DNA from: a virus
Taxonomy: Duplodnaviria > Heunggongvirae > Uroviricota > Caudoviricetes
Length of the DNA stretch: 28,060 bases
Direction: 5' to 3' (one strand)
Virus record (IMG/VR): IMGVR_UViG_2728369593_000002
How positions within the stretch are numbered: the stretch's first letter is position 1; each line of letters starts with the position of its first letter. A program made the position numbers and the translations under genes. Shown piece after piece: positions 5,015-28,060 of this stretch. The notes under the pieces were generated by a model. It made no database searches and had not been told where the DNA came from. It saw only the letters and a program-made list of their open reading frames with translations.

Positions 5015-5527
5015 ATGACAACTCAAATTTCTGTTGAAACTCTCTCCCCGATCACCCATAACCAGATTCCTGTTATTACCACCGAACTTTTGGCGCAGCT
5101 TTACGGCACTGAGCCGGTGCGCATTCGCCAGAATCATCATGAGAACAAAGTACGCTTCGTTGAAGGGAAACACTTTTTCAAAGTTGTTGGTAATGACCTT
5201 AAAGAATTGCGGGTAGCTTTAAACTACTCACAAAATTTGCGGGTTACTTTAAGTAACTCACAAAATTTGCAACCATCTTTAAGAGGGTTACAAATTTCCC
5301 CGAAAGCCCGCTCCCTCATCCTCTGGACAGAACGCGGAGCAGCCCGTCATGCCAAAATGCTCGAAACCGATCAGGCGTGGGATGTGTTCGAAAAAGCTGG
5401 AAGACTGCTATTTCAGACAAAAAGGATCCGTCAGCGCCAGCTTCATGCCAGAAAAAGTTTACGACACGCGAGTTCTCTGTTATCAGCGAGGCGGTGTCAC
5501 TGTTTCCACAATTCAGTTGCGGGATGA
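5015..5527 (+). CDS. ORF6N/KilA-N-like DNA-binding domain protein (antirepressor-like moron); the C-terminus probably continues in ORF 5349..5630 after a frame break
   Basis: N-terminal region (ITTELLAQLYGTEPVRIRQNHHENKVRFVEGKHFFKV ... LILWTERGAARHAKMLE) resembles the ORF6N domain. The last 35 residues of this frame are Arg-rich and look out of frame. Confidence 0.55.
   Translation: MTTQISVETLSPITHNQIPVITTELLAQLYGTEPVRIRQNHHENKVRFVEGKHFFKVVGNDLKELRVALNYSQNLRVTLSNSQNLQPSLRGLQISPKARSLILWTERGAARHAKMLETDQAWDVFEKAGRLLFQTKRIRQRQLHARKSLRHASSLLSARRCHCFHNSVAG
5205..5294 (+). repeat. three tandem, progressively degenerate copies of a 30-bp unit inside the ORF6N gene
   Basis: aattgcgggtagctttaaactactcacaaa / atttgcgggttactttaagtaactcacaaa / atttgcaaccatctttaagagggttacaaa; encodes LRVALNYSQN-LRVTLSNSQN-LQPSLRGLQI. 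Confidence 0.55.
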
Positions 5528-5725
5528 TGATATTGTTATTTCCCTTGAGTCATGGCTGGAACTGGCGAGAGCCAATGGTTGGTTTGTTGTTCGCAGAGAT
5601 AAACTGGTGGAAAGGCTGATGCAGCTTTAAAAAAGTTCTTGCAATTTTAGCCATAAACTGCTTCAATTTCGGTATGCTTCGCAAAGCTGTATCGCGAGGC
5701 GAACCAAGCGCATGCACTTTACCAG

Positions 5726-5756
5726 AACCCGCCATTGAGCGGGTTTTGTTGTTTCT
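5726..5756 (+). terminator. intrinsic terminator downstream of the ORF6N gene
   Basis: AACCCGC-CATTGA-GCGGGTT hairpin followed by TTTTGTTGTTT. Confidence 0.5.
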
Positions 5757-5978
5757 GACGGATAGAAAAAATGAAATAGCTAAATAAAAAGAATGCATTG
5801 GATGCCATATATTGGCAACGTGACGACAGCGTTAATCTGGTCGGGCTCCCATGGCGACGTAGTGAGGGAGAGGAAGCGTAAAGCATCACTGAGTTACGGT
5901 TGGCACCCGGTTTAACGCGTAAGTGGCCTGATAAAGAGATAGTGCGCCGCGGCACTCACAGCGGCAACGATTAACTGA

Positions 5979-6003
5979 CCTCGGCATTTGCCGAGGTTTT
6001 TTA
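5979..6003 (+). terminator. intrinsic terminator upstream of the lysis cassette
   Basis: CCTCGGC-ATTT-GCCGAGG hairpin followed by a T6 run. Confidence 0.55.
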
Positions 6004-6102
6004 TTTAAGGCCGCAGACAGGCCCATTTAGTGCAACGCCTTTCCCCGTTTCCGCTCCTGGAATATTCGGGGATTTTTTATTCCCTCAATTTGCACCCGCG
6101 AT

Positions 6103-6462
6103 ATGTGCGAGGTGAGAGATGATGAAATGCCTCATAACCCAAATACCTGGCCGGACTGGCTGGAGTTGTTTCAGAGCTGGTGGCGTGGAGACACTCCGCT
6201 GGGCGCAGTGATTATGTCGATCGTTATGGCTGGTTTGCGCATCGCCTATTTTGGCGGTGGTGGGGGCTGGAAACGAAAAACGCTTGAGATTTTGCTCTGT
6301 GGTGCCCTGACGCTGACCTTTGCATCCGCGCTTGAGTATGTCGGATGGCCTAAATCACTTTCTGTTGCCATTGGTGGTGGGGTGGGGCTGATTGGTGTTG
6401 ATGCTATTCGTGGTGCGGCAATGAGGGTCATCGGTAACAAGTTCGGTGCCCATAAGGAGTAA
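6103..6462 (+). CDS. class I holin, lambda S-like; possible dual start (Met at 6103 and Met at 6127)
   Basis: Three predicted transmembrane segments, Gly-rich loops and a charged C-terminal tail; GAGGTGA Shine-Dalgarno precedes the second Met at 6127. Lies immediately upstream of the endolysin. Confidence 0.8.
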   Translation: MCEVRDDEMPHNPNTWPDWLELFQSWWRGDTPLGAVIMSIVMAGLRIAYFGGGGGWKRKTLEILLCGALTLTFASALEYVGWPKSLSVAIGGGVGLIGVDAIRGAAMRVIGNKFGAHKE

Positions 6463-6465
6463 TTA

Positions 6466-6942
6466 ATGCAGACACTTAATTCCCAGCGTAAAGCTTTCCT
6501 TGATATGGTGGCATGGTCAGAAGGAACAGATAACGGACGGCAGAAAACCAGAAATCACGGTTATGATGTTATTGTCGGTGGCGAACTGTTCACTGATTAC
6601 TCCGATCACCCCCGCAAACTTGTCACGCTAAATCCGAAACTCAAATCAACAGCCGCCGGACGTTACCAGCTTCTTTCACGCTGGTGGGATGCCTACCGCA
6701 AGCAACTTGGTCTGAAAGATTTTTCTCCAGAAAGCCAGGATGCTGTAGCGCTGCAGCAGATTAAAGAGCGTGGCGCTTTACCGATGATTGACCGCGGCGA
6801 TATTCGTCAGGCAATCGACCGTTGCAGCAATATCTGGGCTTCGTTGCCGGGCGCTGGTTACGGTCAGTATGAACATAGAATCGGTGACCTGATTGCCCGA
6901 TTTAAAGAAGCTGGTGGGGGGGTAAATGAAGCTGAGATATAA
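6466..6942 (+). CDS. R: endolysin, lambda R-type lytic transglycosylase
   Basis: 158 aa; NSQRKAFLDMVAWSEGTDNGRQKTRNHGYDVIVGGELFTDYSDHPRKLVTLNPKLKST...RGDIRQAIDRCSNIWASLPGAGYGQ is near-identical to lambda R as recalled. Confidence 0.9.
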   Translation: MQTLNSQRKAFLDMVAWSEGTDNGRQKTRNHGYDVIVGGELFTDYSDHPRKLVTLNPKLKSTAAGRYQLLSRWWDAYRKQLGLKDFSPESQDAVALQQIKERGALPMIDRGDIRQAIDRCSNIWASLPGAGYGQYEHRIGDLIARFKEAGGGVNEAEI

Positions 6943-7318
6943 GCTGGTTATTGTTGCCTTCTTTGTTACCGTCATCGGTTCTTTTATCTGGTCTGCCGGG
7001 CATTACTACAGCAAATATCAGCACGAAAAGGAGCGCGCTGATGAGGCTGTACGAAATGCTGAATCTGCAACAGCCATTACCAGTAACGTCCTGCAATCAC
7101 TGCAAATCATCAATACAGTTATAGAGGCTAACCAGCATGCAAAACAGCAGAGCGCACTGGAGTCACAGAGAACCCAGGAAGATATCAAAGTGGCTGTTGC
7201 GGATGATGATTGCGCTGTTCGTGTTGTTCCTTCTGGCGCAGTTAAGCGGTTGCACGAATACGCGAACGGTATACGTGTCGGTGCCGGTCATTCCGTTACC
7301 AGCAAGTCTGACGGCTGA
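6926..7318 (+). CDS. Rz: i-spanin (Rz-like)
   Basis: N-terminal transmembrane helix then a helical periplasmic domain; start overlaps the endolysin stop; contains the overlapping o-spanin frame. Confidence 0.6.
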   Translation: MKLRYKLVIVAFFVTVIGSFIWSAGHYYSKYQHEKERADEAVRNAESATAITSNVLQSLQIINTVIEANQHAKQQSALESQRTQEDIKVAVADDDCAVRVVPSGAVKRLHEYANGIRVGAGHSVTSKSDG

Positions 7319-7481
7319 AACACCCCAGCCAGATTTACCCGACCCGTTTACGTGGGGAGCCAGCCTTAACCTGAATGTTGCGTTGTTGTCAGCGTTAGCA
7401 CAGTGCAACAGGGATAAGGCTGATATCAGGACTTTTGAGAAAAACAGGGCAGCACAAACCAATGGCACGATTAAACGTTGA
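7203..7481 (+). CDS. Rz1: o-spanin (Rz1-like) outer-membrane lipoprotein, overlapped with and extending past Rz
   Basis: Starts inside Rz in the +1 frame; signal peptide with lipobox LSGC; proline-rich mature region (VPVIPLPASLTAETPQPDLPDP). Confidence 0.55.
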   Translation: MMIALFVLFLLAQLSGCTNTRTVYVSVPVIPLPASLTAETPQPDLPDPFTWGASLNLNVALLSALAQCNRDKADIRTFEKNRAAQTNGTIKR

Positions 7482-7647
7482 AGTTATCCCACCAGACAGC
7501 GAAACGATGAACGAGATTTTTGCAGAGATTGAACGTAAATATGCGCATCAGCCGATGACGCCAAAAGTTATCGATGAAATGCAACGCGAAGCGGCGCGCC
7601 TTGTAAGGCGAGTGACAAACACGAAGGTTACGTTTGTTCGGGACTGA
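7462..7647 (+). CDS. small hypothetical protein (about 61 aa) between spanins and terminase
   Basis: Internal Met of listed ORF 7435..7647; no recognised family; overlaps the Rz1 3' end. Confidence 0.3.
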   Translation: MARLNVEVIPPDSETMNEIFAEIERKYAHQPMTPKVIDEMQREAARLVRRVTNTKVTFVRD

Positions 7648-7704
7648 CATTACAGAAGCTCCTTTGATAAGGGGCTTCGATAATGTCACTAAGAGGAATA
7701 ATTC

Positions 7705-8455
7705 ATGGCAAAACCGGACTGGGAGGCCATCGAATCGGCATACCGGGCCGGAGTCCTTAGCCTCCGTGATATAGGCGAGAAATACGGCGTTACAGAAGGG
7801 GGCTATCAGGAAGAGGGCCAAAAAGCTTGGTTGGGTACGCAGTGGCGGTACGCAGGTTTGCAAAAATGGTACGCAAAAAAGAAAAGTGCGTACCAGCAGA
7901 AAGCCTGCCATTACTGGCCTTACACAAAAAGGTACGCAACCAAAAACAGAACCTACACTGGATACGAAACCGATACGCGGAATGCGTACCGATCCCCCGA
8001 CTAACCCATTCCAACCCGGTAACCAGCAGGCATTAAAACACGGTGGTTATGCCCGTCGCCTTCTGCTCAAAGATGAGGTGATAGAGGACGCTAAAGCGTT
8101 GACGCTCGAGGACGAATTATTTCGCCTTCGTGCTAACAACCTTGTCGCTGCAGAGAATATTGGTCGGTGGCTGGTGTCGCTGGAAGATGCTAATGGGGAC
8201 CAGGAAAGGAAGATGCTGATGGAAAATATCAGCGCCGCCGAGAAAGCAATGATGCGCAATACAGTTCGTATTGAGTCCATCGTTGGCACGCTTGCGACGG
8301 TAGGAAAAATATTTGCTGATACAGCCTACCGCAAGGCCGCCACTGATAAGGTGTCTCTGGAGGCTGATCGTCTTCGCCGTGATGCAGGTATTGATGATGG
8401 CAATGGAGAGCGTGACCTCAATGACTTCTACTCTGACATCCAAACCGACGCTTAA
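7705..8455 (+). pseudogene. terminase small subunit, split by a +1 frame break at a G5 run (7798-7802); may be a real frameshift or a homopolymer sequencing error
   Basis: N-terminal HTH MAKPDWEAIESAYRAGVLSLRDIGEKYGVTEG is in one frame. The expected continuation AIRKRAKKLGWVR ... NPFQPGNQQALKHGGYA is in the next frame and ends at 8455. Removing one G restores a single ORF of about 249 aa. Confidence 0.65.
7834..7990. repeat. array of the 8-mer GGTACGCA (4 direct copies, 2 inverted copies TGCGTACC) within the small terminase gene; candidate pac/terminase recognition site
   Basis: Direct copies at 7834, 7847, 7868, 7931; inverted copies at 7887 and 7983; degenerate GATACGAAA/GATACGCGG nearby. 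Confidence 0.55.
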
Positions 8456-9824
8456 TCCGGCTTTACGTAGTTTCTGGACTACGCGGGCACGTAACAAAGT
8501 GCTTTATGGTGGCCGGTCATCGTCAAAATCATGGGATGCCGCTGGCATTGCCATATTTCTGTCGAATAAATACACCCTGCGTTTTTGTTGTGCCCGTCAG
8601 ATCCAGAATAAAATCGAAGAGTCGGTTTATACCCTGCTCAAAATTCAGATAGACAGGTTTGGCCTGCGGCACCGTTTCCGGATTCTGAACAACAAAATCA
8701 TTAACCGGGTTACTGGCTCGGAATTTGTTTTTTATGGATTATGGCGCAACATCGAAGAAATTAAATCACTGGAGGGGATCGATGTGTTGTGGCTGGAAGA
8801 AGCCCACGCACTGACGGAATACCAGTGGAAAATTCTGGAGCCAACGATCCGTAAAGAGGGTTCGGAATGCTGGTTCATATTCAACCCCGGACTTGTTACT
8901 GATTTCGTCTGGCGCAACTTCGTTGTTGATCCGCCCGAAGGCACTCTCATCCGCAAAATTAACTATGACGAAAATCCGTTTCTGTCTGACACCATGCTTA
9001 AGGTTATCGACGCGGCGCGACGCCGTGATCCGGATGGTTTTAAACATGTGTATGAGGGCGTTCCGGAGTCTGATGATGATGCGGCAATCATCAAACTGTC
9101 CTGGATAGAAGCCGCAGTGGATGCGCACAAAACGTTAAATTTCGAACCCAGTGGAAGAAAGCGTATTGGCTTTGACGTGGCTGACAGTGGTACAGATAAG
9201 TGCGCTAACGTTTACCGTCACGGATCCGTTGTTTTCTGGGCCGACGAATGGAAGGCCAAAGAAGATGAATTACTGAAGAGCTGCCAGCGTACTTATCAGG
9301 CGGCGCTGGAGCGTGAAGCAGATATTGTTTACGACTCTATCGGTGTTGGTGCGTCTGCCGGTGCTAAATTCTCTGAAATTAACGCTGACCGGAAGAGCGA
9401 GAATGCATACGCGCGACGTGTGAATTACCAGAGGTTTAACGCTGGTGCTGGTGTGCATGAACCAGATGACGAATACAACGGCATCCCCAACAAAGACTTT
9501 TTCGCAAATCTTAAGGCTCAGGCATGGTGGCTGGTGGCTGACCGTTTCAGAAATACGTTTAACGCCATTAACAACGGAGAACAGTATCCTGTGGATGAGC
9601 TGATCAGCATAGATTCTCGTTGTCCGTTGCTTGAAAAGCTGAAACTGGAACTGACAACACCTCATCGCGATTTTGACCGTAACGGACGTGTGATGGTCGA
9701 AAGTAAAAAAGACCTCGCAAAACGCGAGATACCGTCACCAAACGTTGCTGACGCATTCATTATGGCCTTCGCGCCAATTGATACATCGCTGGATATCTGG
9801 GAACAGCTGGGGAGACAGGCCTGA
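8421..9824 (+). CDS. terminase large subunit
   Basis: 467 aa from ATG 8421 (GGAGAG Shine-Dalgarno upstream). Walker A-like YGGRSSSKS and nuclease-domain acidic residues. The listed 8313 start is rejected because it overlaps TerS. Confidence 0.9.
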   Translation: MTSTLTSKPTLNPALRSFWTTRARNKVLYGGRSSSKSWDAAGIAIFLSNKYTLRFCCARQIQNKIEESVYTLLKIQIDRFGLRHRFRILNNKIINRVTGSEFVFYGLWRNIEEIKSLEGIDVLWLEEAHALTEYQWKILEPTIRKEGSECWFIFNPGLVTDFVWRNFVVDPPEGTLIRKINYDENPFLSDTMLKVIDAARRRDPDGFKHVYEGVPESDDDAAIIKLSWIEAAVDAHKTLNFEPSGRKRIGFDVADSGTDKCANVYRHGSVVFWADEWKAKEDELLKSCQRTYQAALEREADIVYDSIGVGASAGAKFSEINADRKSENAYARRVNYQRFNAGAGVHEPDDEYNGIPNKDFFANLKAQAWWLVADRFRNTFNAINNGEQYPVDELISIDSRCPLLEKLKLELTTPHRDFDRNGRVMVESKKDLAKREIPSPNVADAFIMAFAPIDTSLDIWEQLGRQA

Positions 9825-11290
9825 TGGCACGAAACAAACAAGCCCTGCGGAGAACTGCGCAGGCCACAGCTGATGGTTATGAGAATTTTATTGCCCGCGT
9901 AGGGATGCAGACACCTAACCAGCACTCAGCATCCACCTACCGGGCTAATTTCACCAGTCGTAACCGCATGCTGGTGGAATGGTCCTATCGTTCATCCTGG
10001 ATCATCGGCGAAGCGGTCGATGCTATCCCGGATGATATGACCCGCAAAGGCATTCGCATCACTTCGGAAATTGATGCAAAAGATCGTGGCATTCTCGAAT
10101 CACAACTGGATGAGTTGCAAATCTGGGATGCGCTGAATGACGTACTGAAATGGTCGCGCCTCTACGGCGGCGCGGTGGGTTTCATCATGATTGAGGGGCA
10201 GGCACCAATGACCCCGCTGCGACCCGAAACCATCGGTAAGGGCAAGTTTAAGGGGATTCTCCCGCTCGACCGCTGGATGATTGACCCGGTACTGACCCGC
10301 CGCATTAAAGATATGGGGCCGGACCTGGGTAAACCTGAGTTTTACGATGTGGTGACCACCGCAACGGGAATTCCTGCCTGGCGCATTCATCACAGTCGAC
10401 TGATTCGCTTTGATGGCGTCACGCTGCCATTTCAGCAGAAGATGACCGAGAACGAATGGGGAATGTCGGTTGTGGAGCGTATCTGGGATCGTCTTACCGC
10501 GTTCGACAGCGCTACTGTCGGCGCGGCGCAGCTGGTCTACAAAGCGCATCTGCGCACCTACAGCGTGGAGAAGCTACGCGAGCTTATCGCACTTGGTGGT
10601 CCTGCGTATGAAGCGTTGCTGAAGAATATTGACCTGATTCGACAGTTCCAGAGCAATGAAGGCATGACGCTCATGGACTCGCGGGATAAGTTTGAAACCC
10701 ATCAGTACAGCTTCAGTGGTCTGGATGACATCCTTTCACAGTTTGCAGAACAGATTAGTGGCGCTGTTGGTATCCCACTGGTGCGGTTGTTCGGACAGTC
10801 CCCGAAGGGATTTTCTAACGGCGATGCAGACCTTGCCAACTATTACGACCGGGTAAGCTCGTTGCAGGAGAGGCGTTTACGTCTTCCGGTGCGGCGGATA
10901 CTGGACATCATGCATCGTTCGGAACTTGGCAAGCCGCTCCCGGATGATTTCACGTTTGAGTTTAACCCGCTCTGGCAAATGTCTGATGTCGATCGTTCAA
11001 CGGTGGCGTTAAATACCACCAACGCAATCAGTACAGCGCTGGGTGATGGTCTGATGACACTGAAAGCCGCTATGACTGATTTGCGCGAAAATTCTGACGT
11101 AACCGGCATCGGGGCATCCATTACCGACGAGGACATAGAGAATGCCGAAGACGAAGCGCCGCCCGGCATCGGCGAACCTGATGACGAACCGCAGGAACCG
11201 TCAGGCGGAAATCCGGTATCGAATCAGTCTACGCAGGATAGCGCGGGCGGTCGGGGACATCGTAAATGGTCGCTACGATGGTTCAAATGA
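9824..11290 (+). CDS. portal protein
   Basis: 488 aa directly after TerL with a one-base stop/start overlap (TGATG); acidic C-terminal region. Portal-like by position and size. Confidence 0.8.
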   Translation: MARNKQALRRTAQATADGYENFIARVGMQTPNQHSASTYRANFTSRNRMLVEWSYRSSWIIGEAVDAIPDDMTRKGIRITSEIDAKDRGILESQLDELQIWDALNDVLKWSRLYGGAVGFIMIEGQAPMTPLRPETIGKGKFKGILPLDRWMIDPVLTRRIKDMGPDLGKPEFYDVVTTATGIPAWRIHHSRLIRFDGVTLPFQQKMTENEWGMSVVERIWDRLTAFDSATVGAAQLVYKAHLRTYSVEKLRELIALGGPAYEALLKNIDLIRQFQSNEGMTLMDSRDKFETHQYSFSGLDDILSQFAEQISGAVGIPLVRLFGQSPKGFSNGDADLANYYDRVSSLQERRLRLPVRRILDIMHRSELGKPLPDDFTFEFNPLWQMSDVDRSTVALNTTNAISTALGDGLMTLKAAMTDLRENSDVTGIGASITDEDIENAEDEAPPGIGEPDDEPQEPSGGNPVSNQSTQDSAGGRGHRKWSLRWFK

Positions 11291-11915
11291 CAGTATCACG
11301 GAAATTATTGCGGCGCTGGAGCGCTACAGTGAAATCATAACCCCCTGGGCGACAAAGGTCGCGGAAAACTTTACTGCGGATCTAACCCGGCAGAACGAGA
11401 AAGTTTGGCGGCAACACAGCAAGAACATCAGTCGCGAGCTCCGCAATCTTGTGGAAAGCGCTCCTGTGGGCCAGGTGATGCAATCCATCATCGCCGAACA
11501 GGTCAAGTACATCAAATCGCTACCCCTCGAGGCGGCTGACAGGGTGTACGACATCCAGAATCGGGCGACAGAAGCTGTTGTGACCGGCGGGAGAGCAGAA
11601 CATTTTGCTAAAGAAATAGCCGCATCGGGTGATATAGCAAAGTCCAGAGCTGACCTGATTGCCCGTACTGAACTTGGACGTGCAACCGGCGCGCTGGATC
11701 AGGCGCGTGCGCTGTCAATTGGTTCGAATGGTTATATCTGGCGTACAGCCGAAGATGGTGACGTCAGGCATTCTCATCGGGAAATGGAAGGTAAATTTGT
11801 CGAATGGGGCAAACCTCCAACGCTTGATGGCATGACCGGTCACGCTGGCGAGCTCCCGAATTGTCGCTGTTATAAAGAAATCGTTTTTCCCACTTCCCAA
11901 TCTTATCCCGCCTGA
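11142..11915 (+). CDS. MuF-like (SPP1 gp7 family) head morphogenesis protein; start uncertain
   Basis: C-terminal region ARTELGRATG...YIWRTAEDGDVRHSHREMEGKFVEW...NCRC resembles the Phage_Mu_F domain. No canonical start codon lies downstream of the portal stop, so it either overlaps the portal by about 150 nt or is joined to it by another frame break. Confidence 0.6.
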   Translation: MPKTKRRPASANLMTNRRNRQAEIRYRISLRRIARAVGDIVNGRYDGSNDSITEIIAALERYSEIITPWATKVAENFTADLTRQNEKVWRQHSKNISRELRNLVESAPVGQVMQSIIAEQVKYIKSLPLEAADRVYDIQNRATEAVVTGGRAEHFAKEIAASGDIAKSRADLIARTELGRATGALDQARALSIGSNGYIWRTAEDGDVRHSHREMEGKFVEWGKPPTLDGMTGHAGELPNCRCYKEIVFPTSQSYPA

Positions 11916-11929
11916 ATCGCAGGTAACCC

Positions 11930-13150
11930 ATGAAATATTTTTTCAATACCCGGCTGGGAGAAACCCGCTACCAGCTGGCTGACGGCTCGTTGCTGTGCAA
12001 AGACGTGCCGATAGGACGAACAGGTAAGCAGCTCTATGGTGCTGATGACCTGCCAAAACTGAAACCCGATAAGTTCGGTGAAATAGTCGTCACGCGTTCT
12101 CCTGAGCAGGTATTCCATCCGGCCACGCTTGCCTCATTCGAAGGGATGAGCATCACGATTCTGCATCCTGAAGATGAAAACGGGAATGTGCGGCTGGTAA
12201 ATCCCGAGAACTGGAAAGAGCTTGCTGTCGGGCACCTCCAGAATGTCCGGCGCGGGACGGGTGAGCAGTCTGATTTGATGCTGGTTGACCTTATCGTCAA
12301 AGACGAAAGCGCCATTCAGCTTATCGAAGATGGCCTGCGCGAAGTGTCGTGCGGCTATGACGCGGAGTATGAGCAGACCGAGCCAGGTAAAGCCGAGCAG
12401 GTCGATATTACCGGAAACCATGTGGCTCTTGTCCCTAAAGGCAGAGCCGGAAATCGTTGTGCAATTGGAGACAGAGACACAATGGCAAATCAAAAGAAAA
12501 GCTGGTGGACCCGCATGCGCACGGCCATCAAAACGGGTGACGCTGACACCATGAACGAACTGGTGGAGTCGGCTCCCGCATCGGTTACAGGAGATGAGGG
12601 GGATTTGCCGCAGGGCGTTAATCTCAACATCAACCTGTCCCCGCAGCAACCGCTACCGGACAAAGCACCAGAGATGGGCGGAGGTCCAACCGGCGACAGT
12701 GATGATGACCTCAAAACATTACTGAAAGCCCTGCTGGCTAAGCTGGAAGGAAATGCGACGGGCGATAACGACAATAAGCCTGACGATAATCCGACCGGTG
12801 ACGGCGAGGACGATGAAGAGGAAACCACGATTACTGGTGACTCAGCCTGGCGTGCCGAAGTTATCGTTCCGGGTATCGATCTCAGCCGTAAGATGAAACC
12901 GACCGCGTTCAAACGTGAGGTTCTGGCTTCTGCTGACAAAACGCTGGTTCGCCAGATCGTCGGTGATGCGGATATCCGCAAATTGCCGAAACAATCGGTC
13001 GACATGGCGTTTAATGCCGTGTCTGAGATTGCCAAAGGGCGAAACACCCGCGCCACCACCGGCGATGCACAGCGCCCAAACATGGGCATGACCAGTATCG
13101 CTTCCCTGAACAAACAAAACGCTGAATTCTGGGCAAACCGTAAAGGGTAA
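11930..13150 (+). CDS. DUF2213-like scaffold/prohead protease-like protein with acidic low-complexity linker
   Basis: 406 aa between the MuF-like and capsid genes; D/E/G-rich central region. Family and role are inferred from position and recalled similarity. Confidence 0.5.
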   Translation: MKYFFNTRLGETRYQLADGSLLCKDVPIGRTGKQLYGADDLPKLKPDKFGEIVVTRSPEQVFHPATLASFEGMSITILHPEDENGNVRLVNPENWKELAVGHLQNVRRGTGEQSDLMLVDLIVKDESAIQLIEDGLREVSCGYDAEYEQTEPGKAEQVDITGNHVALVPKGRAGNRCAIGDRDTMANQKKSWWTRMRTAIKTGDADTMNELVESAPASVTGDEGDLPQGVNLNINLSPQQPLPDKAPEMGGGPTGDSDDDLKTLLKALLAKLEGNATGDNDNKPDDNPTGDGEDDEEETTITGDSAWRAEVIVPGIDLSRKMKPTAFKREVLASADKTLVRQIVGDADIRKLPKQSVDMAFNAVSEIAKGRNTRATTGDAQRPNMGMTSIASLNKQNAEFWANRKG

Positions 13151-13153
13151 AAA

Positions 13154-13660
13154 ATGAATAATGTATTTCTGTACCGGATGCCTGTTGGCATTGCCGGGGC
13201 TGTCTCTCGCCCGCAGGACTTAACCGTCGAACCGGTGGTCCTTAAATCCGATAACGCCTTCGCTGCCTATGGCCTGGCTGGTAAATACGATGATGACGGT
13301 TTTTTCGTGCCGCTGGCAGATGGTGATACCGCAGACAAGGTGAAGGGGATCTACGTGCGCCCTTATCCGACCACGTCGCAGCCGGACATGGTTCGCCAGG
13401 TGGGAACAGGCAAGAACTTCCCGGGCGACGCCATGAAGCGTGGCTACGTGACCGTTAATCTCGGTTCTGATTTTGATGCCAGCACCATCAAAAAAGGCGA
13501 CCCGGTATACGTTGTCGTCTCCACTGATGAATCCATCAAAGTGCCGCTGGGTGGATTCATGGCCACGTCAGTCAGTGGCAAAAACGTGGTGCTGACCAAC
13601 GCTGAATTCACAGGTGCCGGTGATGCTGACGGCAATGCAGAAATTTCCTGGAAGATTTAA
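13154..13660 (+). CDS. hypothetical head protein (possible decoration or structural protein)
   Basis: 168 aa immediately upstream of the major capsid gene. Confidence 0.45.
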   Translation: MNNVFLYRMPVGIAGAVSRPQDLTVEPVVLKSDNAFAAYGLAGKYDDDGFFVPLADGDTADKVKGIYVRPYPTTSQPDMVRQVGTGKNFPGDAMKRGYVTVNLGSDFDASTIKKGDPVYVVVSTDESIKVPLGGFMATSVSGKNVVLTNAEFTGAGDADGNAEISWKI

Positions 13661-13671
13661 GGAACAGACGA

Positions 13672-14613
13672 ATGATTACTTTTGATCAGGCAACCGTTGA
13701 CAGCTCTGGTGCCTTTCTCATCGGGGAGCTGGAGCGACTCGACCAGACGCTGAACCTGCCACTGGTGGGGTACACCTGGACCCGCGATATCCAACTGCGT
13801 GAAGATGTCTCCATCGCAGATGACATTTCCAGCTGGACGAATACCAGCTTTGCCGCTGCGGGTACTGGTGCAAATCCGAATGGCAAAAACTGGGTAGGCA
13901 AAGACTCAACCGCTATTGCTGGCGTGAACGTGGATATCGGCAAATCCGGTAACCCGCTGAACCTGTGGGGGATGGAACTTGGCTGGACGGTCATAGAATT
14001 GCAGGCTGCTCAGCAGGTCGGCCGCCCGATTGATACGCAGAAGTATGACGGTATGCAACTGAAATGGCAGATGGATAACGATGAACAGGTATATGTTGGC
14101 GATTCTGCATTAAACCTGAAAGGCCTTGTTACCCTGGACGGCGTGCCTGTCAACAACGCTGCCAAAACGTGGGCAACCTCAACACCGGACGAAATCCGCG
14201 CAAGCATTAACCAGGTGCTGTCTGATGCGTGGGCCGCTTCCGGTTACTCTGTGGTTCCGCGTGATTTGCTGATCCCGCCTGAGCAGTTTGCTCTGTTGTC
14301 CAGCATCATCGTTTCATCTGCGGGTAACCAGTCCCTGTTGACGTATCTTCAGACCAACACCATCAGCTATCACCAGAACGGTGTTCCGCTGAATATCCGC
14401 GCGGTTAAATGGCTGAAAGGCCGTGGTGTGGGGAAAAAGGATCGCATGGTTGCGTACACCAACGATAAAAAATACGTCCGCTACCCGCTGGTTCCGCTTC
14501 AGAGCGTGCCGGTGCAGTATCGCGGTCTGTATCAGATCGTCACTTACTACGGCAAGCTGGGTGCAGTCGAGCCAGTGTACAAAGAAACCATTTCGTACGT
14601 TGATGGCATTTAA
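13672..14613 (+). CDS. major capsid protein (DUF2184-like)
   Basis: 313 aa at the capsid position, followed by a GC-rich hairpin. Family assignment is from memory. Confidence 0.65.
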   Translation: MITFDQATVDSSGAFLIGELERLDQTLNLPLVGYTWTRDIQLREDVSIADDISSWTNTSFAAAGTGANPNGKNWVGKDSTAIAGVNVDIGKSGNPLNLWGMELGWTVIELQAAQQVGRPIDTQKYDGMQLKWQMDNDEQVYVGDSALNLKGLVTLDGVPVNNAAKTWATSTPDEIRASINQVLSDAWAASGYSVVPRDLLIPPEQFALLSSIIVSSAGNQSLLTYLQTNTISYHQNGVPLNIRAVKWLKGRGVGKKDRMVAYTNDKKYVRYPLVPLQSVPVQYRGLYQIVTYYGKLGAVEPVYKETISYVDGI

Positions 14614-14620
14614 CAGCCAC

Positions 14621-14642
14621 ATGGCCCCCCTGGCGGGGCCAT
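14621..14642 (+). promoter_or_regulatory. GC-rich RNA hairpin downstream of the capsid gene (no U-tract); possible transcript stabiliser or attenuator
   Basis: ATGGCCCC-CCTGGC-GGGGCCAT perfect 8-bp inverted repeat. Confidence 0.3.
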
Positions 14643-14655
14643 TAAGGATGACCCG

Positions 14656-14874
14656 ATGGCAAAAAATGATGCAGTAATACACGTACATACCCCGTTTGTG
14701 CTCACGCTTCCCGACGGTTCACGGCGCGAGTTTGTTAAAGGCCGTCATGCTGTGGAGGAAGAAGTTGCCACGCACTGGTTCACTCGTGCGCACGCGGAAG
14801 TATCCGTTGGCAAAGCCACAGACGCGCGTAATGAGGTAAAAAAATGCCAAAGAATCAAAGTCTGCCAGCGGTAA
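14656..14874 (+). CDS. hypothetical head-tail joining protein
   Basis: 72-codon ORF; 3' end overlaps the next gene, whose ATG has a GAGG Shine-Dalgarno. Confidence 0.4.
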
Positions 14875-17865: not shown

Positions 17866-17875
17866 GGGGAAGTGA

Positions 17876-18317
17876 ATGTCTACCTATTCTTTTATGGATG
17901 TCACTGCGACGCTGACCGGGCCGACCGGTTCGATTGACCTCGGGTACGGTTCTGCAAGTTCTGAAGAGGGGATTGGTGGTTGCGATGGGCGGTCCTAAAA
18001 ACACCATGACCATCGGTGCTGATGGTGAAGTGATGCACAGCCTCCATGCAGATAAAAGCGGGACGATTACCGTTAACCTTCTGAAGACATCACCGACAAA
18101 TAAAAAATTGTCGCTGGCGTATAACGCACAGAGCCAGTCTTCTGCCACATGGGGGAATAACGTTATCGTGATCCGCAACAAGGTCAGCGGCGACATCATC
18201 ACGGCACGCAGTGTTGCGTTCCAGAAACAACCGGATAATGCCAACGCTAAAACCGGTAATACGATGCCGTGGGTGTTTGACTGCGGCAAGATTGACCAGT
18301 TTCTCGGGGAGTTTTAA
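17876..18317 (+). pseudogene. tail tube protein (DUF3277-like) with a +1 frame break near 17975-17976; may be real or a sequencing error
   Basis: ATG 17876 with GGGGAAG Shine-Dalgarno gives MSTYSFMDVTATLTGPTGSIDLGYGSASSEEGI, then stops after 7 more codons. The next frame continues VVAMGGPKNTMTIGADGEVMHSLHADKSG to 18317. Deleting one G in GATTGGTGG joins them into about 146 aa. Confidence 0.6.
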
Positions 18318-18320
18318 TAC

Positions 18321-18773
18321 ATGGAATTCGAAATCAAAGGCGTGAAATATCGCGTGGCAAAACTCAGCGTTTTTGACCAGCTGAAAGTGACCCGCAAACT
18401 TCTGCCGGTGCTGGCAGGAATGATGTCAGATTTCGGGAGCATTCGCTCCCGTTTGCCTGCTGACGGCAAAATCGACACCGTGAAATTCGAGCAGTTAAAA
18501 CCGGTGTTTGAAACCATGCTCCCGCGTATCGCTGAGGAACTGTCTTCCCTGACCGAAGATGACACCGATGCGATTATTCACCCCTGTCTTGCGGTGGTAT
18601 CGCGGCGTCATATGGACGGATGGGTGCCGGTATTTACCCGGGGCGAACTGATGTTTGATGATATTGACCTGCTGGTCATGCTTCATCTGGTGGCGCGGGT
18701 GGTCGCCGATTCGCTGGGAAATTTTTTGCCTACGCCCCTTACCAGCACGACGCAGAGCCTGCAACAGGGCTGA
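18321..18773 (+). CDS. tail assembly chaperone (lambda gpG analogue)
   Basis: 150 aa between tube and tape measure genes; slippery heptamers near the 3' end. Confidence 0.65.
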   Translation: MEFEIKGVKYRVAKLSVFDQLKVTRKLLPVLAGMMSDFGSIRSRLPADGKIDTVKFEQLKPVFETMLPRIAEELSSLTEDDTDAIIHPCLAVVSRRHMDGWVPVFTRGELMFDDIDLLVMLHLVARVVADSLGNFLPTPLTSTTQSLQQG

Positions 18774-18961
18774 CGTTTAACAGCCTGCCGGACGGGCTGT
18801 CCTACCTTCTCAATCCGGTTGACGCCGGGTTAATTCCTTATACAGCACTTAAAGATGGCTCTGTCGATTTGTACGACATTGCTCTCTTGAATGACCATCT
18901 GGCGGTAAAAGCGGATAACCAGCGGCGCATTGAGAAATGGAGAGAGGATAATGAACGCTGA
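18321..18961 (+). CDS. tail assembly chaperone -1 frameshift fusion product (gpGT analogue)
   Basis: A AAT TTT / T TTT TTG slippery heptamers (18719-18728) in the zero frame. The -1 frame is open from there to TGA at 18959-18961 with no start codon of its own. Confidence 0.5.
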
Positions 18962-18999
18962 AACTATTAAAGATTTCCTCGGTCTCGCTTGGCTTCAGT

Positions 19000-21608: not shown

Positions 21609-21611
21609 TTC

Positions 21612-21914: not shown

Positions 21915-21916
21915 CA

Positions 21917-22951: not shown

Positions 22952-22973
22952 AAAAAGTATTTTTTGGTTATTC

Positions 22974-23282: not shown

Positions 23283-23312
23283 TCTTTACCAACACAACTG
23301 TATTAATCATTG

Positions 23313-23352
23313 CTCTCTCATCTTGAATATGCGCTAATCTGTACATGTACAG
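23313..23352 (+). promoter_or_regulatory. candidate promoter (-35 TTGAAT 23313-23318; -10 TAATCT 23335-23340) with overlapping 14-bp perfect palindrome CTGTACATGTACAG (23339-23352) as putative operator
   Basis: Sigma-70-like hexamers with 16-bp spacer; the palindrome spans the -10/+1 region immediately upstream of the antitoxin Shine-Dalgarno. Confidence 0.45.
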
Positions 23353-23362
23353 AGAGGGTGCT

Positions 23363-23776
23363 ATGAAAACCATTACTTATACACAAATGCGTTCGGATTT
23401 ATCTGCCACGCTGGAATTGTTACGCTCAGGTGAGAGTGTAACGGTAACGCAACGGGGGAAGCCTGATACTGTTATCAGTGCAAAAACCGTTGATAAGGTG
23501 GTGTCTGGAAAAGAAATTAAGCCACAAAACAAAACGATAGATGCGCATCTTGCACAGTTAATTTCATCTAATTTATCCCCACAGGTAACGGAGGGAGTCA
23601 TGAAGTTTACTAAGCAATTAGATGTCCTTCTGCAGTCTGATGAGGCGCGCCAGGCAATGATGAAGGCTGCCAATGCTGCACTTGCCCTGCAGGGCGTATC
23701 AGAGTCATTTATTAAAGCTTTGCAACATACTCAGACTAAGCATGCGGAAATTATAAAAAAACTGGAAGATAAATAA
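23363..23776 (+). CDS. Phd/YefM-family antitoxin with long C-terminal extension (137 aa)
   Basis: N-terminus MKTITYTQMRSDLSATLELLRSGESVTVTQRGKPDTVI matches the Phd/YefM fold signature. GAGGG Shine-Dalgarno upstream; stop overlaps the Doc start (TAATG). Confidence 0.7.
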   Translation: MKTITYTQMRSDLSATLELLRSGESVTVTQRGKPDTVISAKTVDKVVSGKEIKPQNKTIDAHLAQLISSNLSPQVTEGVMKFTKQLDVLLQSDEARQAMMKAANAALALQGVSESFIKALQHTQTKHAEIIKKLEDK

Positions 23777-24183
23777 TGGCTGAGATTACGTTTCTTTCGG
23801 TTGATGAGGTTATTGCGATTCAGAAAAGTACGCTGCCGAACAGCGGGCAGCCTGATATAGGTAAGCTCGAAGGTGCCCTGAACAGGGTGCATAATCTGCA
23901 CATATATGAAGGCTGTGAGGATTTATTTAAATTTGCCGCTATGTATATGGTAGCAATAGCGAAGTCTCACGCTTTTAACGATGCCAACAAGCGAACAGCT
24001 TTCCAGGCCACCAGCATTTTCTTGCTAATGAATGGCTATGAACTTAACACCTCCATGGAGTTGGTGAAGTTGACTATCTTTGCTGCTACTGGAGAAGCTG
24101 ATTGTGATAATACTGCACTGGCACTAAAACTCTTGTCAGATTATAAGAATGAGCTGCTGGCAGACACGATTACTGGATACTGA
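23776..24183 (+). CDS. doc: Doc (death-on-curing) Fic-family toxin
   Basis: 135 aa with the Doc active-site motif HAFNDANKRTA; translationally coupled to the upstream Phd-like gene. Confidence 0.85.
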   Translation: MAEITFLSVDEVIAIQKSTLPNSGQPDIGKLEGALNRVHNLHIYEGCEDLFKFAAMYMVAIAKSHAFNDANKRTAFQATSIFLLMNGYELNTSMELVKLTIFAATGEADCDNTALALKLLSDYKNELLADTITGY

Positions 24184-24215
24184 TAGCGTATCAACGGTAA
24201 ACGTAAAATGTGTAT

Positions 24216-24239
24216 AACCCGCCGTCGAGCGGGTTTTTT
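24216..24239 (+). terminator. intrinsic terminator downstream of doc
   Basis: AACCCGC-CGTCGA-GCGGGTT hairpin followed by a T6 run. Confidence 0.6.
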
Positions 24240-24254
24240 ATGTCTGGAGAAAAT

Positions 24255-25007
24255 ATGCCAGTTTCACTTTCCTCTCAACTCGGCAGTAAAGAACAGGCCG
24301 ATGTAAGACTTGCTGGTTCTGTCATGTCGGTGCTGCGTGTTTCTATGCCCGGTATCGTCCAGTCATTTGATCAGGACACGGTAACGGTAGTTGTTCAACC
24401 AGCGATTAAAGGTTATGAGCCGGACTCAAATGGAATCAACCAGTCGACGACATTACCCCTGCTGGTGGATGTGCCAGTGGTATTTCCGCGCGGCGGAGGC
24501 TGTACGTTGACTTTTCCGGTAAAAGCCGGTGATGAATGTCTGGTGATTTTTTCCGATCGTTGTATTGATTTCTGGTGGCAGAACGGCGGGATACAGGAGC
24601 CGGTCGATGACAGAATGCATGATTTATCGGATGCATTTTGTATTGTCGGTCCCCAGTCGCAGGCGAGGAAGATTAGCGGTATTAATACCAGTGCCACACA
24701 GTTGCGTAGTGACGACGGCAGCACCTATTTTGAGCTTAATCCTGATACCAGGAAAATTAAAATTGTCGCTCCGGGTGGTCTTGATGTGGTTGCCCCTCTG
24801 GCTGATTTTTCTGAGAAAGTAACCATTCATGGCCTGTTAACCTGGATGGGGGGCATGGTGGGGTCTGTGGTTTCTGGTGTGGCTTCAAAAATCACTGGTG
24901 CTGTTGAGTTCTTGGGGAGCGTGAAGGCTAACGGCAAGCCAATCGATGATACGCACACTCATGGTGGTGTTCAGCGCGGTGGAAGCAGTACCGACGGGGT
25001 AAACTGA
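24255..25007 (+). CDS. baseplate spike/assembly protein (gpV-like)
   Basis: ATG 24255 with GGAG Shine-Dalgarno; the listed 24210 start lies inside the terminator. Gly-rich C-terminus with a THTHGG motif. Confidence 0.6.
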   Translation: MPVSLSSQLGSKEQADVRLAGSVMSVLRVSMPGIVQSFDQDTVTVVVQPAIKGYEPDSNGINQSTTLPLLVDVPVVFPRGGGCTLTFPVKAGDECLVIFSDRCIDFWWQNGGIQEPVDDRMHDLSDAFCIVGPQSQARKISGINTSATQLRSDDGSTYFELNPDTRKIKIVAPGGLDVVAPLADFSEKVTIHGLLTWMGGMVGSVVSGVASKITGAVEFLGSVKANGKPIDDTHTHGGVQRGGSSTDGVN

Positions 25008-25360
25008 TGCGATACAGACGTGAAGACGCCGATGGCGATTACACCTTTGGCAGCGGTGATGACACCTGGCTGATTAACTCACCGGAGGCCGTGGCGCAGG
25101 CGGTAAAAACGCGATTCGAATTGTGGTATGGGCAATGGTTTCTCGACACCACCGAGGGGACTCCGTGGATCCAGTCCGTACTCGGTAAGCAGAAGCCTGA
25201 AACCTACAACCTGGCGATCCGTAAGCGCATCCTCGAAACGCGGGGCGTTAAATCAATCCTCTCTTTCAATACGACGGTGGATACCACGACCCGACGTGTC
25301 ATGTTTTCCGCTGAAATCGACACTCTTTATGGAATAACGACTGTTACATCGGAGGCGTAA
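25007..25360 (+). CDS. baseplate wedge protein (gpW/gp25-like)
   Basis: 117 aa between spike and J-like genes; start overlaps upstream stop. Confidence 0.5.
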   Translation: MRYRREDADGDYTFGSGDDTWLINSPEAVAQAVKTRFELWYGQWFLDTTEGTPWIQSVLGKQKPETYNLAIRKRILETRGVKSILSFNTTVDTTTRRVMFSAEIDTLYGITTVTSEA

Positions 25361-26559
25361 TGGCTCTGAACCTTGATTCTCTCGGTTTATCTGCAAAGGT
25401 AACCGCGGAGGGGATCAGTGCGCCTGATTATCAGACGATACTCAGCACCCTGATTAGCTATTTTCAGCAGATTTATGGCAGTGATGCCTACCTCGAACCG
25501 GACAGCAAAGACGGCCAGATGGTGGCTCTGATGGCGCTGGCGATTCATGATGCCAATAATATGGCGATAACTGTCTACAACTGTTTTTCACCGGCAACCG
25601 GCTATGGGGCTGCACTGACCAGTAACGTGAAAATAAATGGTATTTCACGTAAAGGCGCGACGAACTCTACGGTTGATTTGCTTCTTGCAGGAACTGCCGG
25701 AACAACCATCATTAATGGCAGCGTGAAAGACAGTAATAATGTGATATGGCGTTTGCCTGCTTCAGTAGTGGTCGGCGTGGATGGTACAGTGATGGCGACC
25801 GCAACATGTTCCGTCAGTGGTGCAGTGGCGGCGCTGGCTGGAACTATCACTGAAATTAATACGCCAACCCGTGGCTGGGTTTCGGTAACCAATCCTGCTG
25901 CAGCTACTGTGGGCACTCCGGCAGAAACTGACGCGGAGTTACGTATCCGCCAGTCGCAGAGTGTTGCGTTGCCATCAATAACCCCATTTGAAGCACTGGA
26001 TGGTGCTGTTTCTAATGTTACCGGTGTAACCCGCCACAAACTCTATGAAAACGATACTGGTTCGGAGGACGGTAACGGGTTACCGCCACACTCTGTTGCT
26101 GTAATTGTGGATGGCGGTGATGTAACGGATATTGCTCAGGCTATCAGAGGGAATAAAGGCCAGGGGACAGCCACTCACGGTACAACATCCGTTACGGTTC
26201 CGGATAAATACGGCAATCCCCATGTAATCAAATTCTCGCGTTCCAGTGATGTGCCTGTTTATGCCCGGATTAAATTAAAAGTTTTTACGGGTTATACCTC
26301 ACAGATAGGGCAGCAGATCCAGCAGGCTATTTCCGACTATATCAATAGTCTGATGATTGGTGATTCGGTCCTTTTAAGTCGCATTTACTCACCGGCGAAT
26401 CTTGGCGTGGTGAGTGGCGGGAATGCACGCTATTACGATATTCAGGAACTGACGATTGGGAAATCCCAGGGGACTTTGTCGTCATCAAACATTGATATCA
26501 GATATAACGAATCTGCGTCCTGTACCCCGGAAAATATCGTTATAACGGTGGAGTCATGA
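25360..26559 (+). CDS. baseplate J-like protein
   Basis: 399 aa in conserved gene order W-J-I upstream of the tail fibre. Confidence 0.65.
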   Translation: MALNLDSLGLSAKVTAEGISAPDYQTILSTLISYFQQIYGSDAYLEPDSKDGQMVALMALAIHDANNMAITVYNCFSPATGYGAALTSNVKINGISRKGATNSTVDLLLAGTAGTTIINGSVKDSNNVIWRLPASVVVGVDGTVMATATCSVSGAVAALAGTITEINTPTRGWVSVTNPAAATVGTPAETDAELRIRQSQSVALPSITPFEALDGAVSNVTGVTRHKLYENDTGSEDGNGLPPHSVAVIVDGGDVTDIAQAIRGNKGQGTATHGTTSVTVPDKYGNPHVIKFSRSSDVPVYARIKLKVFTGYTSQIGQQIQQAISDYINSLMIGDSVLLSRIYSPANLGVVSGGNARYYDIQELTIGKSQGTLSSSNIDIRYNESASCTPENIVITVES

Positions 26560-27236
26560 GCAAATACACCGAACTAATCACAAACTACCACGCCTCCAAA
26601 CCTAAATTTCTTTCACATGTTGATCTGATGACCCGGCCGCTTATTGATGTTGCGGCTGCCACCAGAGGGCTGATTACTGCATTTGATATCGACTCTGCGG
26701 TTGGTGTGCAACTTGACATTCTGGGATTGTGGATCGGACGTAGCCGTGTTGTCAGCCAGCCTATTTCAGGTGTCTATTTCAGCTGGGATACCGACGGGAT
26801 TGGATACGATCAGGGGGTATGGCAGGGACCATACGATCCTGATTCAGGATACATGTATCTCAGCGATGAAACTTATCGTGTCATTCTTAAAGCGAAGACT
26901 GCGATTAATAACTGGGACGGACGGAATGATTCGCTTCCGGCAATTCTTGACGCGGCAACAGCAGGATCCGGGCTGCGAATGCAGATTGTCGATAACCAGG
27001 ACATGACGATATCGGTCTGGGTCTTTCCTGATACTGATATTTCAGATGTATCGCGTGAGTTAATTGCTGCAATTAAACAGGGATATCTCACAGTAAAAGC
27101 CGCCGGGGTGTGGGCGGGTGGTATTGAAACACCTTCGGTGGAAACCCCATCGGAAGGTTCAAAATTTTTTGGTTTTGATATGGATAACGAATTTATCAGT
27201 GGTTTTGATGTAGGGGCATGGGGAGTATTACTCTGA
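26556..27236 (+). CDS. baseplate/tail protein I-like (DUF2612-like)
   Basis: 226 aa; stop overlaps the tail fibre start (TGATG). Confidence 0.55.
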   Translation: MSKYTELITNYHASKPKFLSHVDLMTRPLIDVAAATRGLITAFDIDSAVGVQLDILGLWIGRSRVVSQPISGVYFSWDTDGIGYDQGVWQGPYDPDSGYMYLSDETYRVILKAKTAINNWDGRNDSLPAILDAATAGSGLRMQIVDNQDMTISVWVFPDTDISDVSRELIAAIKQGYLTVKAAGVWAGGIETPSVETPSEGSKFFGFDMDNEFISGFDVGAWGVLL

Positions 27237-28060
27237 TGGCAAAAAATGACTTTAAAGCATTCGCAACGGGTAAAAATGCCAATGTTATGTCGCAGGAGGA
27301 ATGGGAAGCGTTGCCTGCGCTTTTATCCGGATTTACAGCAGGGAAAGCCTCCAGTGCGCAAGTCAATAAGGTTATTCGGCAGGCCAGCTTTATTGCTGCA
27401 GCTCTGGCCCAGTTTGTAAGTGATAAAACGCAACGGGATGTGCTTGATAATGGTGATCTGCCCGGTTTTGTTGAATTGCTGGGATCGGGGTTTGCTGTTG
27501 AATACCTGAGCCGCAAGAATCCGTTTGGTGATATCAAATCGGATGGCACGGTGAAAACGGCTCTCGAAAAACCTTGGTTTGGGAGAAGGAGCTCCAGCTA
27601 TTGGCGTTCCGTTCTTCTGGCCGTCCGCTGCAATGCCAGATACCGTAATCGATAGCTGGTCCGGTATGGTGTTTTTGAAGTTCAACGGCGCGAAATTCTC
27701 TGCCACTGATTACCCTGTGCTGGCGAAAGTGTTTCCGGCGCTGGCATTACCTGACGCACGCGGTGATTTCATTCGTATCTGGGATGATGGGCGCGGGATT
27801 GATGTCGGACGTACCCTACTTTCAGGGCAATCACACACAATTATGGATCATGCACACAATATGGAATTGTGGACGGGGGACGGGCTTGCCGCAGGAAGTG
27901 CACGGGAAGGAGTAAACCCAGGAATACTGGCTACATATGGTGACGGGGGAATAGTTAAAACGGACGAACCCGGTCTTAAGGTGCCTTCCTCACTACGAGC
28001 TATTAGCTCTCGTAGTGTTAAACGTTATGGTGAAATTAGTGGAAATGTAGGTACAGAAAC
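27236..28060 (+). pseudogene. tail fibre protein, 3' partial (runs off window), with a +1 frame break at an A5 run (27567-27571); may be real or a sequencing error
   Basis: N-terminal frame ends in Arg-rich out-of-frame sequence at 27655. The adjacent frame reads NLGLGEGAPAIGVPFFWPS...LPDARGDFIRIWDDGRGIDVGR...HTIMDHAHN (tail-collar-like) to the window end. A4 instead of A5 joins them. Confidence 0.6.

Follow-up and report, generated by a model that had tools for sequence, protein, structure and literature searches.

The window, by which we mean the whole stretch of DNA that was analysed (28,060 bp), constitutes the entire contig AKYH01000082.1 of the draft assembly GCA_001605745.1. A literature search for AKYH00000000, AKYH01 or GCA_001605745 gave no paper naming the accession. 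The gene order of the prophage carried on the window, which runs through terminase, portal, Mu-F-like protein and major capsid and goes on with sheath (DUF3383), tube (PF11681), chaperone with DUF6889, tape measure and baseplate J, is the same as that of Escherichia phage vB_EcoM-611R5 (97% DNA identity over 64% of the query) and, more distantly, of Salmonella phage SEN34 (80% DNA identity over 50% of the query). Identity to the window is 97-98% in many complete E. coli genomes, 23 of which span 80% or more of the query; the tube and tape measure region had no match at 99% identity or above in a set of 5,426 complete E. coli genomes from RefSeq. The prophage site in the relatives adjoins pphA-yebW-yebV. 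The accessory cassettes of the window are mosaic, comprising a PBSX-type large terminase module and, at 23345-24183, a Phd/Fic-Doc pair. An IS481-type element occupies an intergenic position (1480-2574), and many E. coli genomes have the same junction between it and hokD.

Frame breaks in seven prophage genes

The initial annotation, made from the sequence of the window, had listed six genes that are each interrupted by a single-base frame break. All six breaks were found to be present, and each of the named genes is split relative to its homologues. The list was incomplete, as a seventh broken gene, belonging to the STY1053 family, had been omitted. The seven genes and their breaks, in order along the window, are as follows.

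ORF6N-domain gene: 5015-5630, + strand; cluster of four +1 changes at 5391..5460
Small terminase gene: 7705-8455, + strand; G5 at 7798..7802, G4 in relatives
STY1053-family gene: 14656-14874 in its present reading, + strand; A7 at 14838..14844, A6 in relatives
Tail tube gene: 17876-18317, + strand; GG at 17975..17976, single G in relatives
Tape measure gene: ATG 18951, stop 20958, + strand; GG at 18981..18982, single G in relatives
Secreted-protein gene: 111 aa, GTG 22948, stop 23282, + strand; T6-GG-T2 at 22960..22969 (codons 5-7), T7-G-T3 in relatives
Tail fibre gene: start 27218 or 27236, runs off the contig end at 28060, + strand; A5 at 27567..27571, A4 in relatives

In the ORF6N-domain gene, A5 runs at 5391-5395, 5419-5423 and 5452-5456 and a T3 run at 5458-5460 correspond to A4, A4, A4 and T2 in the relatives, and the shorter runs were present in 10/10 of the other loci covering these sites. 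Shortening only the run at 5419-5423, as was first proposed, does restore read-through, but there are four insertions and 21 residues stay unlike those of the homologues. The corrected product has 203 aa, is the same as in nine relatives and matches Pfam ORF6N with E = 5e-19. The break in the small terminase gene gives rise to ORFs of 99 aa and 157/189 aa. G4 was found at this site in 14/14 other loci and in 2/2 species-representative genome matches, and the corrected protein (249 aa, the same as in nine relatives) was assigned to phrog_370, terminase small subunit (E = 7e-95). The run in the STY1053-family gene lies at the 3' end of the gene, just ahead of the ATG of the next gene, and alters the last 11-12 residues; A6 was present in all four of the other loci with the same flanks. 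Correction of this run changes a frameshifted form of 72 aa into a product of 73 aa, the same as in two other loci (L007 and L012).

The tail tube gene is divided into ORFs of 40 aa and 113/127 aa, and a single G occupies the site in 47/47 other loci, 35/35 metagenome contigs among them. The corrected tube protein of 146 aa is the same as in five relatives and matches Pfam PF11681 (E = 1e-60). The tape measure break, which had been placed one base too far upstream (18980-18981), lies 30 nt into the gene and leaves an ORF of 652 aa that re-starts at GTG 19000, 18 nt downstream of the break; all 34 of the other loci have a single G here. The corrected tape measure protein of 668 aa is the same as in L007, L009 and L012, and matches phrog_2276, tape measure, with E = 1e-248.

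The secreted protein of the relatives starts VKKVFFCLF, has a signal-peptide-like N-terminus and matches phrog_3443, of unknown function. The site in this gene is compound, with a net loss of one base and a truncated product of 102 aa, and T7-G-T3 was found in 10/10 other loci. Lengthening T6 to T7, the repair suggested earlier, brings the gene back into frame but leaves a Trp at the position of a Cys in the relatives, and the product equals that of the relatives only once the compound site is set back to T7-G-T3. The tail fibre gene is cut off at 27655 by the A5 run, giving a product of 139 aa, and A4 was present in 8/8 other loci.

Reversal of all ten changes restored all seven genes. When the reconstructed proteins were compared with their homologues, as the initial annotation had proposed, five products were the same as those of the relatives after removal of the insertions, and the tail fibre ORF, of at least 280 aa, read through to the end of the contig. 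The earlier count was of five insertions and one deletion; the changes are nine +1 insertions and one compound site with a net effect of -1.

Homologues with the same split structure, which by the initial annotation would have counted against an error, were looked for and none was found; in the comparison with related E. coli myovirus-type prophages and phages, the seven split genes occur on the window contig only. An exact-sequence look-up that spanned about 15 billion proteins likewise placed the seven break-spanning products, together with the 652-aa ORF that re-starts in the tape measure gene, on the window contig only. In the same look-up, the intact sheath and the intact chaperone were found on 11 and 731 contigs, respectively. 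The 157-aa terminase ORF, present on 13 contigs, was set aside as evidence because it lies wholly downstream of the break.

Run-length changes and substitutions in near-identical copies

The near-identical loci compared with the window included L017 (GCA_002461645.1) and L012 (Logan SRR25740492). Aligned with L017 over 11.3 kb, the window had no mismatch and five insertions of one base; aligned with L012 over 21 kb, it had two mismatches and six gaps of one base. At the first of these mismatches (12396) the window and L017 have the same base, and the second belongs to the compound site (22960-22969). Indels aside, the nearest relatives are 0-2 bases different over 11-21 kb. Between the window and each other assembly of the prophage there are 4-7 one-base gaps; over stretches of 3.5-21 kb, the other assemblies have 0-1 such gaps for 0-108 substitutions.

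Within 2575-27867, comparison with the near-identical copies revealed ten private run-length sites and no isolated private substitution, the mismatches to the nearest relatives numbering 0-2 over these 25 kb. At each of the ten sites a run of identical bases is longer or shorter by one and nothing else differs, the compound site being made up of three adjacent changes of this kind; by computation, a random inserted base would match its neighbour just 43% of the time. The density is about one site per 2.5 kb, with nine of the ten being +1 and four falling inside 68 nt of the ORF6N gene. The runs concerned are 1-7 bases long, with no more than two bases at three of the ten sites. The window-type run length was absent at all ten sites from every other locus fetched (4-47 loci per site, 35 of them metagenome contigs), and none of the indels was carried by the relatives at 0-4 substitutions (L017, L012, L007 and L020).

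No nonsense mutation, deletion or in-gene IS insertion was seen in 2575-27867 against the nearest relatives. The earlier statement that the prophage has no other lesions holds for 5015-28060; the IS481-family element lies upstream of that interval, in non-coding DNA.

Even mismatch-repair-defective E. coli acquires about 6-7 substitutions per small indel (PMC8510543). At a substitution to indel ratio of 7:1 for such strains, finding ten indels among 12 events has a binomial probability of about 1.5e-7, which puts the pattern well outside what chance would give. The per-run change rate in the window climbs with run length, from 0.01% for single bases through 1.9% for runs of 4 to 20% for runs of 7; this dependence was dropped as a discriminator, since it fits miscounting and slippage alike.

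Origin of the frame breaks

Because near-identical copies elsewhere differ from the window almost only at one-base run-length changes, the frame breaks are very probably an artefact of sequencing or assembly and not mutations in the bacterium. The initial annotation had also favoured an artefact over a decaying cryptic prophage, and the comparison, with its private indels and its uninterrupted genes in relatives, agrees with that preference. Consensus or base-calling errors would have miscounted runs of identical bases in the draft assembly, mostly as +1 overcalls. The cluster within 68 nt, the excess of +1 changes and the triple adjacent miscount fit a locally poor consensus better than independent mutations. 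The data may have come from an indel-prone chemistry such as 454 or Ion Torrent and/or have been of low coverage, a guess that we base on the 2012-style accession prefix and the type of error. In legacy 454 and Ion Torrent assemblies, homopolymer miscounts are known to create false frameshifts (PMC6742220). The changes in the window resemble such miscounts in being +/-1 run changes, mainly overcalls, that are scattered but locally clustered in one draft assembly, and in vanishing against short-read assemblies of the same element; they differ in that two of the sites, instead of being classical long homopolymers, are single G bases that read GG in the window. We infer the technical cause from indels that are private, confined to run length and unaccompanied by isolated private substitutions. 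The underlying prophage would most likely be intact and unremarkable within a common group of E. coli myovirus-type prophages, and all seven genes, from ORF6N to tail fibre, would be uninterrupted, as they are in the near-identical relatives.

Alternatively, the indels may be real, if slippage during replication disabled the cryptic prophage of one strain at short runs and left it non-inducible. We consider this unlikely, although every lesion alters run length and the rise of the change rate with run length is what slippage would produce. Prophage structural genes are without selection in a lysogen and are dispensable, so that real frameshifts would be tolerable, and the IS481-family element is a genuine mobile-element insertion elsewhere in the prophage. 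The junction of this element with hokD is, however, common in other E. coli genomes and so does not indicate strain-specific decay. Ten indel sites without an isolated private substitution are hard to reconcile with the approximately 7 or more substitutions per indel expected of E. coli even when mismatch repair is lacking, and the indels are absent from all relatives, metagenome contigs and database proteins. Slippage is least likely in runs of 1-2 bases, where three of the sites lie, and the close grouping of four sites and the triple adjacent change also argue against it. The mixed spectrum of nonsense mutations, deletions and in-gene IS insertions that decay would bring was not seen, and lesions produced by decay are expected to be inherited and thus present in clonal relatives, but the relatives at 0-4 substitutions carry none.

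Real indels that arose in one strain as a short burst, with a strong +1 bias and no substitutions, would suggest a frameshift-specific process such as targeted inactivation of the structural genes of a resident phage, which we regard as very unlikely; if true, it would mean that an unusual mutational process acts on, or has been selected in, the prophage.

There is hardly any prospect that reads from paralogous prophage copies in one genome were merged into a chimeric consensus, through a collapsed-repeat assembly error as opposed to faulty base calling. Lambdoid and related prophage modules are multi-copy in E. coli (for this region, a median of 2 and a maximum of 9 matching places per genome), sequences of the ORF6N region are present in many prophages, and a variable tandem repeat of 30 nt is found about 110 nt upstream of the ORF6N cluster. 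Mixing of paralogues should nevertheless bring mainly substitutions, of which none was seen, and pure run-length miscounts also occur in the tail genes, of which most genomes have one copy only (median 1 place per genome). A chimera would at most contribute to the ORF6N cluster, where it would still be an artefact and lead to the same practical conclusion.

It is equally far-fetched that the breaks are sites of programmed ribosomal frameshifting, transcriptional slippage or run-length switching. Programmed -1 frameshifting does occur in the tail assembly chaperone gene of tailed phages, and a candidate slippery site, A_AAT_TTT, is present in the window at 18719-18725. This site is not among the reported breaks, however, and is the same in 32 other loci; it probably marks a true, conserved frame change, predicted to lead from the chaperone ORF into the DUF6889 frame. 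The candidate is comparable to the lambda G/GT-type chaperone frameshift, whereas the reported breaks have neither slippery-site conservation nor split homologues. The homologues have one uninterrupted ORF at all seven genes and no conserved split architecture, run lengths at all ten sites are invariant in the other loci, without length polymorphism, and runs of 1-7 bases are below the length typical of contingency loci. Programmed frameshifting and phase variation were both rejected on the grounds that the homologues are unsplit and the run lengths invariant.

Consequences for annotation

With an artefact as the preferred reading, the breaks leave known phage biology unchanged and their value is practical. 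Annotation pipelines would flag seven prophage genes as frameshifted pseudogenes, and completeness tools could score the prophage as defective; on present evidence, which comes from sequence comparison, the prophage should not be given that label. The contig, and probably the whole of GCA_001605745.1, is unfit without polishing for inferring pseudogenisation, inducibility or gene content.

A C6 run at 14620-14625 was also considered as an eleventh private insertion and was rejected, as it is common to L007, L011, L012 and L013. The C5/C6 difference at this position is a natural intergenic variant and the sole natural length polymorphism seen.

The contig and its prophage genes

An exact-protein look-up identified the window as the complete contig AKYH01000082.1 (28,060 bp) of draft assembly GCA_001605745.1, which is prophage DNA from end to end. 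The genes are ordered as follows.

Leftmost block: late-regulatory genes DUF551, hokD, DUF1367, YbcO and DUF1133, and the ORF6N gene
Between the ORF6N and terminase genes: lysis genes
Right of the lysis genes: small terminase, PBSX-type large terminase, portal, Mu-F-like protein, major capsid
Right of the major capsid: sheath (DUF3383), tube (PF11681), tail chaperone, tape measure
Rightmost block: baseplate genes, then the start of the tail fibre

Prophages of this type are common in E. coli, many complete genomes matching at 97-98% identity, with at least 80% of the query covered in 23, and pphA-yebW-yebV-rsmF adjoins the prophage in the fetched relatives. Escherichia phage vB_EcoM-611R5 is 97% identical to the window over 64% of the query. 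Position 1 lies in the DUF551 region and position 28060 inside the tail fibre gene, where relatives diverge, with inverted tail-fibre and assembly genes and a pinE invertase lying downstream; at both ends a break in a short-read assembly would be expected.

An IS481-family element of 1,095 bp (1480-2574) lies directly upstream of hokD, with the 6-bp sequence AGGAGA directly duplicated on either side (1474-1479 and 2575-2580). Its transposase ORF (1429-2517, minus strand) extends beyond the left boundary of the element into flanking DNA. The insertion is missing from the nearest related prophage loci (L016, L017, L019 and L022), and the IS-hokD junction was found in other complete E. coli genomes at 99.7-99.8% identity over its full length. 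Within the baseplate cluster, a Phd/YefM-like antitoxin gene and a Fic/Doc toxin gene (23345-24183) separate the secreted-protein gene from the spike gene. The pair is also found in loci L005, L007 and L012; in L001, L003 and L004 it is replaced by a DUF4282 gene, which suggests a swappable accessory cassette. The tail assembly chaperone gene holds, shortly before its end, a candidate site for programmed -1 ribosomal frameshifting, A_AAT_TTT (18719-18725), which would lead from the chaperone ORF (18321-18773) into a DUF6889 ORF (about 18725-18961), which ends 10 nt past the tape measure ATG and was missed by the gene caller on this contig. The context of the site is identical in 32 other loci, and the arrangement is of the same type as lambda G/GT.

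Run-length changes private to the window

The window was aligned to five annotated relatives, and much closer relatives were then found by looking up the sheath and DUF1367 proteins for exact matches. Against the five, the window carried one base more at every insertion site and one base fewer in the secreted-protein gene, and further private one-base insertions came to light that the initial annotation, which listed six frame breaks, had not included.

Private run-length changes (window; relatives)
5391-5395, ORF6N gene: A5; A4
5419-5423, ORF6N gene: A5; A4
5452-5456, ORF6N gene: A5; A4
5458-5460, ORF6N gene: T3; T2
7798-7802, small terminase: G5; G4
14838-14844, STY1053-family gene (newly added): A7; A6
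17975-17976, tail tube: GG; G
18981-18982, tape measure: GG; G
22960-22969, secreted-protein gene: T6-GG-T2; T7-G-T3
27567-27571, tail fibre: A5; A4

All the runs named in the initial annotation are present, with the tape measure GG at a corrected position, and each of its six genes does carry a private change; the STY1053-family gene had been left out. None of the other fetched loci had window-type run lengths, the relatives' form being found in 10/10, 10/10, 10/10, 14/14, 4/4, 47/47, 34/34, 10/10 and 8/8. Single-base gains make up nine of the ten sites, four changes are packed into 68 nt, starting some 110 nt past a 30-nt tandem repeat in the ORF6N gene, and the secreted-protein site is a triple adjacent miscount; the pattern looks more like locally poor consensus than independent mutations. 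Runs of just 1-2 bases hold three of the ten sites.

Locus L017 (GCA_002461645.1) aligned to 2575-13908 with no mismatches and five one-base insertions on the window side. L012 (Logan assembly of SRR25740492) aligned to 6813-27867 with two mismatches and six one-base gaps, and L007 (GCA_047897415.1) showed four mismatches and the same six gaps. Because one of the L012 mismatches (12396) is common to L017 and the other is part of the compound site 22960-22969, these alignments hold no isolated private substitution in 2575-27867. Ten other assemblies of the prophage, compared pairwise, gave 0-1 one-base gaps per 0-108 substitutions over 3.5-21 kb; pairs including the window always gave 4-7 gaps, even with 0-4 substitutions.

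The imperfect 30-nt repeat (5207-5283, about 2-2.5 copies, encoding a LNYSQNL / LSNSQNL motif) varies in copy number, L024 having one unit fewer and L003 being short by 53 nt (36 + 11 + 6). The spacer that follows the major capsid gene has a C6 run (14620-14625), which was rejected as a private error: it is a natural intergenic length polymorphism, C6 also in L007, L011, L012 and L013 and C5 in L001, L002, L003, L005 and L009.

Corrected genes and products elsewhere

Taking out nine insertions and adding one T at the compound site gave ORFs of 203 aa (ORF6N; PF10543, E = 5e-19), 249 aa (small terminase; phrog_370, E = 7e-95), 73 aa (STY1053), 146 aa (tube; PF11681, E = 1e-60), 668 aa (tape measure; phrog_2276, E = 1e-248) and 111 aa (secreted protein), with the tail fibre open up to the contig end. 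For the first five, the products match those of relatives exactly. The single-base repairs proposed initially were sufficient for frame and insufficient for sequence in two genes: in ORF6N, 21 residues still differed from homologues because four insertions are present, and in the secreted protein, T6 to T7 left Trp where every relative has Cys, identity being reached only with T7-G-T3.

Among about 15 billion proteins, seven break-spanning products (170-aa ORF6N, 99-aa terminase N-part, 72-aa STY1053, 40-aa and 113-aa tube parts, 102-aa secreted protein and 139-aa fibre N-part) occurred exactly on the window's contig only, as did a 652-aa tape measure restarting 18 nt downstream of the break; the intact sheath and chaperone occurred on 11 and 731 contigs, respectively. 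A pattern scan permitting both run lengths found a single G at the tube site in 35/35 metagenome contigs, and a similar scan found G4 at the terminase site in 2/2 species-representative genomes.

Sequencing error or genuine decay

We are confident that the frame breaks are sequencing or assembly miscounts and that the prophage genes are intact. Homopolymer error, already favoured by the initial annotation, is supported by indels private to the window, the lack of isolated private substitutions there and the match of corrected genes to relatives. False frameshifts from homopolymer miscounts are a recognised trait of legacy assemblies from 454 and Ion Torrent data (PMC6742220); naming a particular chemistry here would be a guess.

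Genuine decay by slippage in this strain alone is very improbable. The hit rate at private sites climbs with run length, which fits miscounting and slippage alike, and indel rates in mismatch-repair-defective E. coli rise exponentially with run length (PMC8510543). However, decay needs ten frameshifts to have arisen with almost no substitutions, and not one indel is common to any relative. Even mismatch-repair-defective E. coli accumulate about 6-7 substitutions per small indel (means per CDS of 6.02 substitutions and 0.85 indels; 4,847 versus 790 in genes; PMC8510543), and at that ratio ten indels in at most 12 events have P ~1.5e-7. A consensus chimeric between paralogues could contribute to nothing beyond the ORF6N cluster, and would likewise be an artefact. 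Recoding or phase variation at the breaks is contradicted by homologues, none of which shares the split gene structure, and by their invariant run lengths. The present evidence does not justify scoring the prophage as defective.

The 109-aa protein STH74211.1, from a 5.05-Mb E. coli contig, shares a 90% cluster with the window's 99-aa terminase N-fragment, and its source assembly may carry a break of its own in the small terminase gene.
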